Positions 24,001 through 30,000 are shown, numbered from the stretch's first letter. The stretch: 32,000 bases of DNA from Psychrobacter sp. HD31 (GCF_051097895.1 NZ_CP142525.1:1350001-1382000), one strand, 5' to 3'. Made by a program: the numbers.

Positions 24001-27000
24001 CATGTCAGCATTGCTAACCGCACAGTTTTACTCTCCGGCTACCATCGTTATGGTAGATTTAGATGAAAACAGGCTCGCACTTGCCAAAGAGCTAGGCGCA
24101 ACGCACACGCTCACCCCTTCTGACAGTATAAAAGAAGACATTGCAAAAATTGTTGGCGAAGATGGCGTAGATGTTGCCATTGAAGCGGTCGGTATTCCGC
24201 AAACTTGGGATGTGTGCCAAAAAATTGTAAAACCAGGTGGTAACATTGCCAATGTTGGTGTACATGGTAAAAAAGTAGACTTTGAAATCCAAGATTTATG
24301 GATTAAAAACTTAACCATTACAACCGGTTTGGTGAACACCAATACCACACCTATGCTGATGAAGGCTGTAGCAACCAACAAGCTACCCGTTGATAAGCTA
24401 ATTACTCACCATTTTAAATTAGAAGAAATGGAAAAAGCCTATGAGGTGTTCTTAAATGGTGCAAAAGAAAAAGCGATGAAAATTATTATTGATGCTTAAA
24501 TTGCACATTAATGTTTAGATGTTTAGCGTTTAAAAAATTAGCTAAGGGTGTATGCATACATCCTTAGCTTTTTTTATGCTATTAAAAATTTGCCCCGCTA
24601 TCGTAAATACCACTTTTTCATGGGTGATGACAATATTGTTGCCACATCATCTACCAATACCAATGCCATACTATCACGGCACCAAGTTGGCACTGCCAAA
24701 TCTTGCAATAGTTTTTTGCCAGACTTTGCCACGCCGTGCCCTGCCAGTGTTATTTTATCGTCACGATTTAACGCCCTAACCTTAATTTTTTGGGTATTGT
24801 TTAAATTTAGGTCTTCTAAACTCACTAGCCAGCTTATCTTGCCATCATTTTTAATGGTTAACATACCGTCTTTTATTAAACTTGCATCAAAAATCTGTGG
24901 CTCAACAGGCTGTTTTAGCCATGCTAACCAATCTGCCCGCAAGCGATACAAATGCCCACGGTAACGGCATAATGTGTAATGGTTATTGCCTTGCCATTCT
25001 ATTTGAGTTTGGTGGTCATTATCTGAGCGGTTTATTAGCCTTAAAACATCATCCACCCGTTGTTTGTTTGGCGGTAGTGGCTCATCATTTTGACTGCTTT
25101 GCAACCATTTATGCACCACCAAGCTTTGCTCTGGGCTTGTCAATTGTTGTAACAGCTCAATATCTAAAACTTGTTGGTAAGGTGGTTTAGTTAGGCTGTT
25201 ATTTGTCACACTTTCTTGCAACGTATCCGCTTGTTGAGATAACACGTTATTCGCATTACCCAAAAGATGTGCACTACGGCTAATGTTTGCCACAGCCTGT
25301 GGATACTTTTTTTGAATCACTGGCATTAATTGTGTACGCAGCCAGCTACGGGTATTGCTTTGCCCGTTTTTTTGTTGATTATTGCTATCTTCTAACCCTG
25401 TGGAAAAGTTGGTTGGGTCATCAATATAAGGTAAGTTATTTGCTTGGGCGTAGGCAGTGATGTCTGCTCGGGTGGCGGTTAGCCAAGGTCGCCAAAGGTT
25501 AATTTTTTTGCCAGCAACTTGCCGTGTTGACCATGCTTGCATGGCGGACAACCCTGCCACCCCTGCCCCATTAAACAAACGCATTAACAGGGTTTCTGCT
25601 TGGTCGTCACCGTGGTGGGCAAGCATTAGAACATCGCCCTCTGTCATTTGCTTTGCCATTGCTTCATACCTGCCGTTACGGGCAGACTGCTCATTTGTGC
25701 CTTGTACGTTGGCATGGCAAATTTTGCAAGGTATGTTGTGGGTGTTTGCCCATGTGCTTACTTGCTGTGCCCAGTCGTCATTGGCTTTTTGCAAACCATG
25801 ATTTACGTGGATAAGCTGTGGGGCAAATGGCAAGTCGCCTTGCAAATAAAGCTGATGAGTTAAGTATGCCAACGCCATAGAGTCCCGCCCACCACTACAG
25901 GCAAGCCAAACACGCTTGCCTTTAAGTTGGCTTGCGTGTTGCTGAAAGCTTTGCATAAGTGTGATTTGTAGAAAATCTATCATAAGCTGTCTAAGTGTTT
26001 AATATCTATAACTGTTCAATACCTAATGAAACAAAATAACTCCATGTTTCATCGTAAAAACCATTAGGTCGAGTATAGTCGATCTTAGACCCTCTAGGAA
26101 TATAGATAATCATCCCTTGTCTAGCTCTGGTAAGTAAAACTCTGTAGGTGTTCTTTAAGTATTCTTTAGTTACTTCTTGATTGATATTCAACCATTTTGT
26201 TCCTTTAAAACTCTGATATTGCCATTCATTATTTTTTAAATAAAAATTTGCGCCCCATGCCAAACAAGCCCAATCTATTTCTAGTCCTTGTATATCAAAT
26301 TCTGTTGCAACTTCTTCTAAAAAATCAGAAGACCTTATGTCTTCTTTATCATTTAAGAACCAATTGGGTGCAGAAATCTCATTTTTAACATCTATACCTA
26401 AAGCTCTCAAACGTCTTGCACCTGAAGAAGCAATTAAACCTTTTCTTTCACTTCCTTTAGCTCTCTTTCTCAACCATTTTTTAGCTTCTGTTAAGTCTCT
26501 AGTAATCAGTATAGGAAAGTCATTTTTTATCTCTCGATATAACTCTTTCGTTTTTTCAGTATTTAAATCCAATAACTCATGCACAAATCCAGATAACTTT
26601 TCAGAACGAAAAGATCTCACTGAAACTGACAGATGAAGTTCTTCTTCTGATACTGCATTGTTTTTAAGCCACGTTTTCTGTTCAAACGATTTTATATAGC
26701 TGAGGCTATCAGTAATAAGATGTGAATAATGAACATCCCAATCCCTATATTTACTATGAAATGGTTTAATCCATTCCTCCAAGCCTGCCTCGCCTGTATT
26801 TATTTCTTGCCCTCCGCCAATTAAACAAATAACTACGCACCAATCTTGATGTCTGTCCATAACATCAATCAAAAATTCAGGCTCAGACATATCAAAGTTA
26901 TCAATGCCTTTTTTCCTTTTCATAAAAGAGCTTACTTGCTTTTTATTCCAAGCTCTTTGAGCTTCATCAAAGACAACCACTTTTTCAGTTGGCTCTATGT

Positions 27001-30000
27001 CATGTTTTAAATACTCATCTCTAAAATGATGGATATTCTGAATAAAAGCACTTGTTTCCCTTTTTGCTTTATCCTTTGTGATGGAAGCGCTCTTTTGCTT
27101 TGAAGTTTCAACCAAATCTCTTGCCAAAGCTTCACATAAAACCTCAACTAGCGGCCCATTACCAGATAAGAAAACAGCATGCTCATTTTGATCTGCTTTC
27201 ATTCTTTGATTAGCAATGTTTAGACCAGCTAGAGTTTTTCCAGCACCTGGGACACCTGTCACAAAGCAAACTGTCTTTTTATAGTTGGCTTTAGAGTCTT
27301 CAATAATTCTATTCAAACAACTTGCTGTTTTAGATAAGTTAATTGCTCCAGAATCTGATCTAGAAATTTCTTTAACATTATGTCCCTTATAAAGAGCCTG
27401 AGCAGCCTCAACAATTGTTGGTGTAGGCTTATAAATTGAATTTTCCCAACTTAAATAATCCAATTTTATAAAGGTATTAGAAGTAAAAAGGGTTAGAAAT
27501 CTACTTAAGTTATTTTTATTAGATTTAACAACTGTTGTATGAGCCAAGACAGACTTGCGATCACATTCTTGATCTGTGCCATTTGTCGCAACCAGAATAG
27601 GGATTAATCTTGCATTGTGGCTACCTTCATGGAAGTTTTTCAAGTCTAAAGTATAATCCAGCACCTGTGTTTGATTATGAGTTTCATATTTATCACTACC
27701 AACTTTAAACTCAATAACAAAAATGGAACCGTCAATAATTACAATGTTATCAACTCGCTTACCCATTCTAGGTATGGCAAATTCAAAATAAATCTGACCT
27801 AAAAAACCATTTAACTGTTCTTTTAAAATTTCAATTTGTTTAATCCATGCATTTTTTTGCTGATCCTCTAGTTGTCTGTTTGCATGGTTAAAACTTAATT
27901 TACCAAGTATTGAATTACCATCTTCATTAATAAAATTTGAAATTGAGTTTTTATAATAAGCTCTATGCATAGTTGAAATCTAATTTAAACAAATCGAAAA
28001 TTACCCAACAATCACTCTTGCATAGGCTTTTTTACCAGCTTGGATAACCACGTTAGCACCGCTTTCTAAATAAAAGCCAGCATCTACCACCTCATTATCC
28101 ACTTTTACAGCCCCACGCTTAACCATATCTTTAGCTTGCGCACCATTTTTGGCAAGTTTAGACTGGTTTAGCACTTGGGTAATAAACAGTTTATCTTGTT
28201 CGCCCAAATCAAGCGTAACCTCTGGCAAATCAACAGGCAACTCGCCATCGGCAAGCACATTACCGGCAGACTTATGAGCGTTTTCGGCAGACTCTTTATC
28301 GTGGAAGCGTTCAATCAGCTCTTCTGCCAAAATGCGTTTAATCTCTTGCGGGTTGCGTCCGTTTTCCATCTCCGCCATTAGCGCATCTACCTCGCTCATT
28401 GGCTTAAAGCTTAAAAACTCATAATAACGGCGTATTAGCGTATCTGGCATAGAAAGCACTTTTTGGTACATGGTGCCAGGGGTGTCATAAATAGCAATGT
28501 AGTTACCTAAAGACTTAGACATCTTTTTCTCGCCATCCAAGCCCTCTAAAATTGGTACGGTAATGCACACTTGCGACTCTTGCCCATAACGCCCCTGCAA
28601 AGTGCGTCCCATTAGCAGGTTAAAGGTTTGGTCGGTACCGCCAAGCTCTACATCTGCCTTCATGGCTACCGAGTCATAACCTTGCACCAATGGGTATAAA
28701 AACTCATGTAGCGAGATTGGCGTTTGCGCTTTGTAACGCTTGCTAAAATCGTCTCGCTCTATCATACGAGACACCGTGGTTTGGCTTGCCAGCGCAATCA
28801 TGTCGCCCGCATTCATTTTATTAAACCACTCAGAGTTAAACATTACCGTGGTTTTGTCTTTATCTAAAATTTTAAATACCTGCTCGGCATAAGTTTTGGC
28901 GTTGTTGGCAATTTCTTCTGGCGTTAGCGGTGGGCGGGTCGCATTTTTGCCCGTTGGGTCGCCAATGGTGGCCGTGTAATCGCCAATCAAAAACAGTACT
29001 TCGTGCCCTAAGTCCTGAAAATGCTTTAATTTATTAATAAGCACCGTGTGCCCAAGGTGTAGGTCTGGCGCAGTTGGGTCAAAGCCTGCTTTAATACGTA
29101 ACGGGCGGTTTTGCTTTAGCTTAGCAATTAAATCTTCTTCCGAGATAATCTCTTGCGTGCCTCGGCGTATAAGTTCTAGTTGTTCTTCAATTGATGCAAA
29201 GTTGGTCATAAAAAATCTCTTAAAATCGTAAAAACATTCTCTTAAAATAATAAAAACTTAACTTGCCTGTTATACTAGCATTTTTTGAATAAATTTCCAT
29301 CGTATAATCCACAAAGCGAGTGCAAAATGACCATACAAAACGCAACGGATAACCTAGACGAGATTGCCGAAGCACTTGGGCAAACCATTTTTGAAGATTT
29401 TAACGAGGGCTATTATATTGGCATGATGTCTGGCACCAGCCTTGATGGGTTAGATGCCGTAGTTGTGCGATTTAATAATGATGAAGCCAACCAAAATAGC
29501 AACCCTTTAGAGCTAGTTGCCACCCACAGCAAAGACTTTGCACCAAACTTGCATAGCGTACTAACCGCCCTTTGCCAACCAAATGGCATTGCAAATTTAA
29601 CTATTAATTTGGATGATAAAGACGAAGGTTTGGCTGATGGCTTGACAAGTGAGCTAGATTGGTTTGGCTGGGCAAGTAAAGAATATGCTGAGTTTGCCAG
29701 CACCGTGGTTAATGAGCTGTTAGAAAATGCAAAAATAGATGCGGATGACGTACTTGCCATAGGTTGCCACGGGCAAACCGTGCGCCACCGCCCACAACAT
29801 GGCTTTAGCCTACAATTGGTAGATGCTAATATCATTGCCGAGCGCACTGGCATAAGCACGGTTACCGACTTTCGCCGTCGTGACATGGCAGTTGGCGGGC
29901 AAGGCGCACCGCTGGTACCTGCATTTCACCAAGCCATGTTTGCAAACCCAAAACAAATGCGTGTGCTGCTTAACCTTGGCGGTATTGCCAATATTAGCGT

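Follow-up and report, generated by a model that had tools for sequence, protein, structure and literature searches.

A DUF2075 gene between tyrS and tilS of Psychrobacter sp. HD31 very probably encodes a single-protein anti-phage enzyme of the Nhi-like family acquired from marine Flavobacteriaceae

What does the AT-rich open reading frame (ORF) packed between tyrS and tilS in Psychrobacter sp. HD31 encode, where did it come from, and does its position between two tRNA-handling genes carry any meaning? The stretch of DNA analysed here, referred to as the window, comprises 32,000 nucleotides of this genome (NZ_CP142525.1:1350001-1382000; GCF_051097895.1), and the ORF in question, which was identified by ORF calling together with its PADLOC match, occupies positions 26006..27970 on the minus strand, starts with ATG and specifies 654 amino acids (aa). 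An earlier note on this DNA, made from the sequence alone, had put it forward as a single-gene defence candidate in which a nuclease is joined to a DUF2075 helicase, and that proposal is borne out by a full-length match to a phage defence profile and by homology to a verified defence protein. The gene, which is deposited as a 'DUF2075 domain-containing protein', belongs to a validated anti-phage family, and it very probably encodes a single-protein anti-phage enzyme of the Nhi-like family that was acquired from marine Flavobacteriaceae.

The family assignment is founded on profile and pairwise comparisons. In a PADLOC scan the entire protein (aa 1-654) aligns with positions 1-653 of the 657 positions in the PDC-S41 profile (E 9.8e-288, 954 bits), and the N-terminal domain matches the same profile by itself (E 5e-68). 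PDC-S41 is a PADLOC 'phage defence candidate' model, and a literature search under that name returned no papers. A family of the same description has, however, been reported as Nhi-like (family SG141), a single protein with an N-terminal nuclease and DUF2075 that was verified against phage (Millman et al., 2022); the member recorded as 'Verified' in the supplement to that study is a protein of 611 aa from Bacillus cereus FSL H8-0482 (IMG gene 2729017301). Over the first 399 aa of the verified protein, the portion that was compared, the window protein is 31% identical (E 3e-46), with the D...ExK motif, Walker A and Walker B in register. As a proxy for the verified Nhi-like protein (Millman et al., 2022), a plasmid-encoded B. 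cereus protein with 95% identity to it was used, and this aligns collinearly with the window protein (29% identity, E 3e-74, window aa 6-644 against 5-598). This proxy matches PDC-S41 at E 1.6e-116 and the PADLOC 'Nhi' model at only 1e-6. Because PDC-S41 also captures this near-identical relative of the verified protein, PDC-S41 and Nhi-like appear to be two names for one family. The published Nhi-like member table moreover includes Nonlabens sp. MIC269 (contig CP011373, + strand) and Winogradskyella thalassocola (Millman et al., 2022), the proteins of which are 74% and 68% identical, respectively, to the window protein.

Other defence models fit far less well. The PADLOC Nhi model (PDLC02372) reaches only aa 222-354 of the window protein, the P-loop region, at E 5e-6, the AbiO model attains only E 1e-5 with its best stretch again at the P-loop region, and no Hna profile match was obtained in the PADLOC scan. 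Judged by its sequence, then, the gene is a further member of the Nhi-like/PDC-S41 family and is not novel in kind. The earlier note had known of no experimentally characterised bacterial protein with this arrangement, a statement that does not hold, since Nhi, Nhi-like and PsNhi-like all carry a PD-(D/E)xK nuclease followed by DUF2075.

Two catalytic modules can be recognised in the protein, both encoded on the minus strand. The DUF2075 assignment was upheld by a profile search, in which PF09848 covers aa 232-625 (26096..27277; E 8e-83), corresponding to a DUF2075 or Schlafen group 3-type helicase domain of superfamily 1 (SF1). Within it lie Walker A (GVPGAGKT, aa 239-246, 27233..27256), Walker B or motif II (VVVFDEAQ, aa 331-338, 26957..26980), a GGGQEI motif at aa 385-390 and a motif VI-like VLLTRARQG (aa 611-619, 26114..26140). 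Ahead of the helicase, aa 1-200 (27371..27970) make up a predicted PD-(D/E)xK nuclease domain, delimited from an AlphaFold2 (AF2) model, Foldseek and the PDC-S41 match, with the catalytic motif D74...E87-x-K89 (27704..27751) recognised from its position, its invariance and its alignment to the D...E-C-K of the verified Nhi-like protein. The first reading of the sequence had named each of these motifs, and all were recovered where it had placed them. Across 50 homologs D74, E87, K89, K245, T246, D335, E336, Q338, R615, R617 and G619 are invariant, as is Q618 in the motif VI-like stretch; the homolog alignment as a whole contains about 200 invariant columns and protein length is constant. On the evidence of these residues, both the nuclease and the helicase catalytic sets are intact.

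The nature of the N-terminal domain emerges at the level of structure. No Pfam family matches aa 1-230, and a sequence search against PDB chains found no match to the window protein at E <= 0.01. The full-length AF2 model has a predicted local distance difference test score (pLDDT) of 71.5 with a confident N-terminal domain, and when aa 1-200 were modelled alone the pLDDT rose to 88 with a predicted template modelling (pTM) score of 0.84. Foldseek searches with this domain returned Cdn1 (8z4i, probability 1.00, E 1.5e-4), VC1899 (1xmx, 0.99), AF1548 (1y88, 0.94), Can2 (8bao, 0.91) and Card1 (6xl1, 0.82), together with the R2 retrotransposon endonuclease (R2 RLE) and restriction enzymes. The domain is thus predicted to have a PD-(D/E)xK nuclease fold, in agreement with the restriction-endonuclease-like character that had been suggested for it. 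Its resemblance to the CRISPR ancillary nucleases Cdn1, Can2, Card1 and VC1899, which give its best structural matches, is at fold level only (12-16% identity), and the partner domains differ. Ancillary PD-(D/E)xK nucleases of CRISPR systems are activated when their CARF domain binds cyclic oligoadenylate, whereas in the window protein the partner is a helicase. The N-terminal domain defines a large family: among representatives of clusters formed at 50% identity, 2,115 match it at E <= 1e-3 and 1,171 still do at E <= 1e-10. Its place is at or close to the N-terminus in nearly all of the matches listed, and members that are full-length measure about 646-704 aa.

What is known of characterised relatives indicates how such a protein might act. 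The verified Nhi-like protein (Millman et al., 2022) shares with the window protein the organisation of a single polypeptide in which an N-terminal PD-(D/E)xK domain with a D...ExK motif precedes a DUF2075 SF1 helicase, but the two are only ~30% identical, differ in length (611 aa in B. cereus, 654 aa here) and come from different parts of the family, the verified member from Bacillus and the window protein from a tightly conserved Bacteroidota subclade. Their settings also differ, the window gene being chromosomal, flanked by housekeeping genes and outside any defence island, whereas the Bacillus gene is carried on a megaplasmid near Shedu and HNH genes. On that plasmid, from B. cereus HD2.4 (NZ_CP085507.1 305260-323041), the Nhi-like homolog is accompanied by Shedu SduA, an HNH endonuclease and a (d)NTP pyrophosphohydrolase, and the stretch has the look of a defence island. 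Phage escapers of the B. cereus Nhi-like protein lose a phage DNA methylase.

Nhi itself (SERP2475 of Staphylococcus epidermidis; Bari et al.) is likewise the product of a single gene, in which a nuclease of ~230 aa is followed by DUF2075. Its N-terminal 230 aa constitute a metal-dependent 3'-5' exonuclease and nickase that is autoinhibited in the full-length protein, its helicase is bipolar, neither activity is dispensable in vivo, and phage DNA does not build up in its presence (Bari et al.). The window protein falls outside the Nhi sequence family, as the P-loop-limited match described above indicates, and no sequence identity has been found between Nhi and Nhi-like (Millman et al., 2022); by analogy, degradation of phage DNA through combined nuclease and helicase action is nevertheless likely to be shared. 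Compared by description, the proteobacterial PsNhi-like protein is similar again, its PD-(D/E)xK domain (M1-F163) at the N-terminus being joined to an SF1 helicase. In E. coli it protects more than 20-fold against 7 of the 11 phages tried, and in purified form it degrades DNA of T7, SECphi17 and SPO1 while leaving genomic DNA of E. coli and plasmid DNA undegraded (Ragucci et al., 2025, preprint, bioRxiv 10.1101/2025.07.10.664194). Following these precedents, the window protein would be inactive on host DNA and would recognise something distinctive in the DNA of phages, the candidates being replication intermediates (the case of S. epidermidis Nhi) and phage-directed methylation. The ATP-driven helicase would then unwind or translocate on the phage DNA, and the PD-(D/E)xK nuclease would nick and degrade it, such that phage DNA accumulation stops. 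By analogy we infer that sensor and effector would be contained in the one protein.

The gene does seem to act alone. Comparison of the window with seven other loci revealed no conserved partner; an optional controller-protein gene is confined to Polaribacter. In two Polaribacter loci (L091 and L092, 5731-6000) a gene for an 89-aa XRE-type helix-turn-helix protein ends exactly where the Nhi-like gene starts. Its product matches the restriction-modification (R-M) 'Control_protein' models of PADLOC (E 7e-21), which suggests that the nuclease is regulated there in the manner of a C protein, and such an abutting controller of R-M type fits a restriction-like, potentially toxic nuclease. No controller-protein gene lies beside the Nhi-like gene in the window, in Nonlabens or in Tenacibaculum.

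Where the gene came from is answered by its relatives. Among the best 120 database matches, one protein is 100% identical and belongs to Psychrobacter sp. HD31 itself, the sole genome with the exact protein; the next 119 are 67-80% identical, and all of the named ones are from Bacteroidota, nearly all of them marine Flavobacteriaceae (Winogradskyella, Nonlabens, Dokdonia, Tenacibaculum, Polaribacter and others). When a neighbour-joining tree was rooted on the Bacillus protein, 98 of 100 bootstraps placed the window protein inside the Bacteroidota clade. The composition of the gene is equally foreign. The ORF has a G+C content (GC) of 0.331 and a third-position GC (GC3) of 0.235, against 0.451 and 0.459 for tyrS and 0.441 and 0.420 for tilS (window mean GC 0.39), 300-nt windows range over 0.28-0.38 inside it and 0.39-0.51 in its flanks, and its codon-usage distance to the pooled window genes (1.25) is the largest among 19 window ORFs, so that the hand-counted contrast in the earlier note is reproduced by systematic computation. 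In GC, GC3 and codon usage it resembles the flavobacterial orthologs (ortholog GC 0.29-0.31). Collectively, the Bacteroidota-nested tree, the atypical composition and the presence of other genes at the same position in relatives, described below, confirm the suggested horizontal acquisition and are at odds with a core gene of host-like composition. They show that marine Flavobacteriaceae (Bacteroidota) were the source of the gene and that the recipient was one strain lineage of a Psychrobacter-like gammaproteobacterium. Essentially nothing but the ORF was transferred: the gene is 71-76% identical at the nucleotide level to the nearest sampled flavobacterial orthologs, and beyond the ORF ends no similarity to the flanks of the flavobacterial loci is visible.

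Movement of the gene is not confined to this event. The sequences of Winogradskyella, Polaribacter and Tamlana are each dispersed over several positions in the gene tree, a pattern that suggests repeated transfer within Bacteroidota too, for all the 67-80% identity, and a plasmid copy from Persicobacter (Cytophagales) nests among the flavobacterial sequences; homologs are thus plasmid-borne in both Persicobacter and Bacillus. Within Nonlabens and within Polaribacter the position of the gene is stable. In flavobacterial hosts (L081, L089, L090) it is more AT-rich than its surroundings, with a GC of 0.30 against 0.35 in Nonlabens and in the genome encoding homolog P0004. Carriage by phage was considered, as MT836127.1 ('Bacteriophage sp.') and five IMG/VR contigs (L083-L087) contain homologs of 45-51% identity, and was not counted. 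All five IMG/VR loci begin at a contig end, with the gene no more than about 8 kb from that end, and no phage hallmark genes were found in 12 kb of one of them (L083); these viral-labelled contigs are probably host flanks or mis-binned rather than phage cargo.

The third part of the question concerns the site of insertion. The ORF is preceded by tyrS (28001..29209, minus strand; Pfam tRNA-synt_1b, E 2e-83) and followed by tilS (24598..25983, minus strand; Pfam PP-loop, TilS and TilS_C), and coordinates and Pfam matches agree with the close packing that had been described, with spacers of exactly 30 bp from tyrS and 22 bp to tilS and all three genes on the same strand. The genes that follow tyrS in named Psychrobacter species are different ones. 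Through TyrS, 37 Psychrobacter/Moraxella loci were recovered (TyrS identity 80-86%), and in none of them does the window gene or tilS occur in the 7 kb that follow tyrS. Since TilS identity is no more than about 45% in the named Psychrobacter, synteny based on tyrS is uninformative there for tilS, and the real relatives of HD31 (L093, L094 and L095) were found through TilS. In L094 (TilS 77% identical) the order is anmK, tyrS, a MarR gene, tilS; in L095 (TilS 70%) it is anmK, tyrS, a DsrE gene, tilS; and in L093, a relative of the same species (Logan SRR29889423 contig 31846; TilS 98%), an SH3-domain gene precedes tilS and the contig ends before any tyrS is reached. The SH3 cargo ORF (L093 3-650) is cut by the contig end, encodes at least 215 aa with a C-terminal SH3_3 domain, and has a GC of 0.298.

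The borders of the exchanged segment are sharp. By blastn, L093 is 98.1% identical in DNA to window positions 25963..20001 and unrelated upstream of 25963, while homology of L094 and L095 to the window stops at 28002 and restarts at 25963 and 25962, respectively. Since all breakpoints coincide at 28002 and at 25962/25963, the strain-variable segment can be placed at 25964..28001, a stretch that takes in the ORF with its two spacers and, at the start of annotated tilS, ~7 codons. One junction therefore falls right after the tyrS stop codon, and the other inside annotated tilS, where homology to the relatives sets in ~10 nt ahead of codon 10, a conserved Met. At this 5' end of tilS (window 25963-25983) the protein reads MIDFLQI-TLMQSF, compared with MPTLTT-TLMQSF in L093 (680-740) and L094 (8001-8030); translation of tilS may really begin at this Met10, or the insertion may have rewritten the TilS N-terminus. 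Comparison of the interval across relatives, one of the checks proposed for this locus, thus shows that presence of the gene varies and that four members of the lineage hold four unrelated single genes in the slot, namely those for the Nhi-like, MarR, DsrE and SH3-domain proteins. As the slot carries a different gene in each HD31-lineage relative, the window gene is best regarded as strain-specific cargo.

Hallmarks of mobile-element cargo, whether integron cassette, transposon or genomic island, are not seen at the ORF. Flanking direct or inverted repeats and attachment (att) sites are lacking, just short AT-rich chance repeats that do not border the gene being present; no integrase or transposase occurs among the window ORFs scanned, and no tRNA gene or any other Rfam family reaches its gathering score in the window.

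Further observations concern the DNA that follows tyrS. In Psychrobacter sp. I-STPA6b, the closest named strain, tyrS is followed by an ORF for a PIN-domain, VapC-like toxin (L001 8508-8930; Pfam PIN, E 6e-13), and this region thereby seems variable across the genus. An rRNA operon was suspected downstream of tyrS as many Psychrobacter contigs end there, and was discarded when no Rfam family was found at the gathering score in six sources.

Does adjacency to tyrS and tilS, combined with a Schlafen-type helicase, point to a Schlafen-like effector that cleaves tRNA, targets translation and is functionally tied to its two neighbours? The full-length model has human SLFN11 (7zep_A, E 3.7e-5, probability 0.98) as its best PDB match in Foldseek, the C-terminal helicase domain, assigned to PF09848, is homologous to that of the Schlafen group III proteins SLFN11, SLFN13 and SLFN5, and PD-(D/E)xK enzymes are in general able to cleave RNA. 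The tRNase activity of Schlafens, however, is located in their N-terminal SLFN core. The window protein has neither that core (AlbA_2) nor the linker, and carries a PD-(D/E)xK nuclease instead, the fold of which is most like DNA nucleases; tRNA cleavage is accordingly not expected of it, and the analogy to tRNA-cleaving Schlafens that the earlier note had drawn falls away, there being no Pfam match in aa 1-230 and no SLFN core. Characterised relatives act on DNA, and the flavobacterial orthologs are not beside tRNA genes. Furthermore, because the same slot holds a MarR, DsrE or SH3-domain gene in relatives, adjacency to the tRNA-handling genes is coincidental, an accident of a hotspot. The note had called the position curious but perhaps coincidental, and of these two thoughts it is coincidence that stands and the tRNA link that does not. 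A translation-targeting effector is consequently very improbable, and we consider it the least probable of the readings weighed here.

Several points tell against an anti-phage role for the protein. It shares only about 30% identity with the verified protein, so a defence function for the protein and for the flavobacterial subclade is argued from sequence; the phage cue differs among the characterised relatives; no defence island is present in the window or in six flavobacterial loci, where the neighbours are all housekeeping genes; and for a defence gene the subclade shows unusual conservation, its members being 67-80% identical across genera, uniformly ~654 aa long and stably positioned inside each genus. 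The last two points, along with the ~200 invariant columns, are what would be expected if the protein were instead a housekeeping or DNA-repair and recombination nuclease-helicase of Dna2, AddAB or RecD type, kept in Flavobacteriaceae and in HD31 for genome maintenance, and weaker Foldseek matches of the full-length model to RecD, UvrB, UPF1 and other helicases lean the same way. Set against such a role are the full-length homology to an experimentally verified defence protein and the NCBIfam search, which gave no meaningful match and no housekeeping equivalog, so that orthology to a housekeeping helicase finds no backing there. The distribution of the gene is patchy, with few Flavobacteriaceae rows and no Tenacibaculum in the published member table (Millman et al., 2022), and a strain with 98% identical DNA has another gene in the slot. 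The scattering of Winogradskyella, Polaribacter and Tamlana through the gene tree, the plasmid-borne homologs in Persicobacter and Bacillus, and the controller-protein gene that abuts the Polaribacter copy all speak against genome maintenance too. This alternative is considered improbable, and an anti-phage enzyme of the Nhi-like family remains the favoured interpretation.

A final point against the favoured interpretation concerns expression. As had been claimed, scans gave no terminator, promoter or flanking repeat above chance: no terminator-like site lies at the tyrS-ORF or ORF-tilS junction, promoter-like matches number 20 against 13.8 +/- 3.9 expected, which is not significant, and neither a promoter nor a Shine-Dalgarno sequence is seen in the 30-bp spacer upstream of the ORF. 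Expression in the host is thus deduced from gene order. The ORF is co-oriented with tyrS and tightly packed behind it with no terminator between, and is therefore probably transcribed by read-through from tyrS. It could be supposed that the gene is a silent passenger, recently and neutrally acquired, with an intact sequence that lies unexpressed or has no function in this host and would in time decay; the bare upstream spacer, the most atypical codon usage of the 19 window ORFs and the restriction of the exact protein to one genome among the best 120 matches would all accord with that. Yet the ORF is intact, read-through is likely given that the essential tilS downstream on the same strand must be transcribed, and all of the family-invariant residues have been kept in spite of a nucleotide identity of just 71-76% to the nearest sampled orthologs, which argues for purifying selection. 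A silent passenger is hence judged about as improbable as a housekeeping enzyme, and an active Nhi-like anti-phage protein is preferred.

The case reveals no new mechanism and opens no long-standing question. It is of modest interest for its cross-phylum origin, its insertion as a bare ORF and its use of a hotspot between essential genes outside a defence island. It offers a clean example of a defence gene that has crossed from Bacteroidota to Gammaproteobacteria as a bare ORF, with a landing site that is a strain-variable slot between two essential genes, outside defence islands and devoid of mobile-element signatures. Discovery approaches that look for defence islands would miss such a locus.

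Two bolder and separate ideas can be entertained, one that the tyrS-tilS interval may be an exchange site for single genes that operates free of mobile elements, the other that the flavobacterial Nhi-like subclade may be a modification-dependent restriction enzyme. The second idea is prompted by two hints, the Polaribacter controller protein and the loss of a methylase in phages that escape the Bacillus homolog. For the slot, repeated homologous replacement through the conserved flanks could operate rather than any specific mechanism. This bolder reading is unlikely, albeit slightly less so than a housekeeping role or a silent passenger; were a specific recombination mechanism at work, the interval would represent a new kind of hotspot, one that takes in bare ORFs even across phyla and expresses them from an essential-gene operon.

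Elsewhere in the window, an ORF of 388 aa (10817..11983, minus strand) is even more AT-rich than the Nhi-like gene, with a GC of 0.271 and a GC3 of 0.20. It has no match in Pfam or PADLOC. Its codon-usage distance (1.21) is the second highest in the window, and this ORF, which adjoins uvrA (12110..15007), is another candidate foreign gene.

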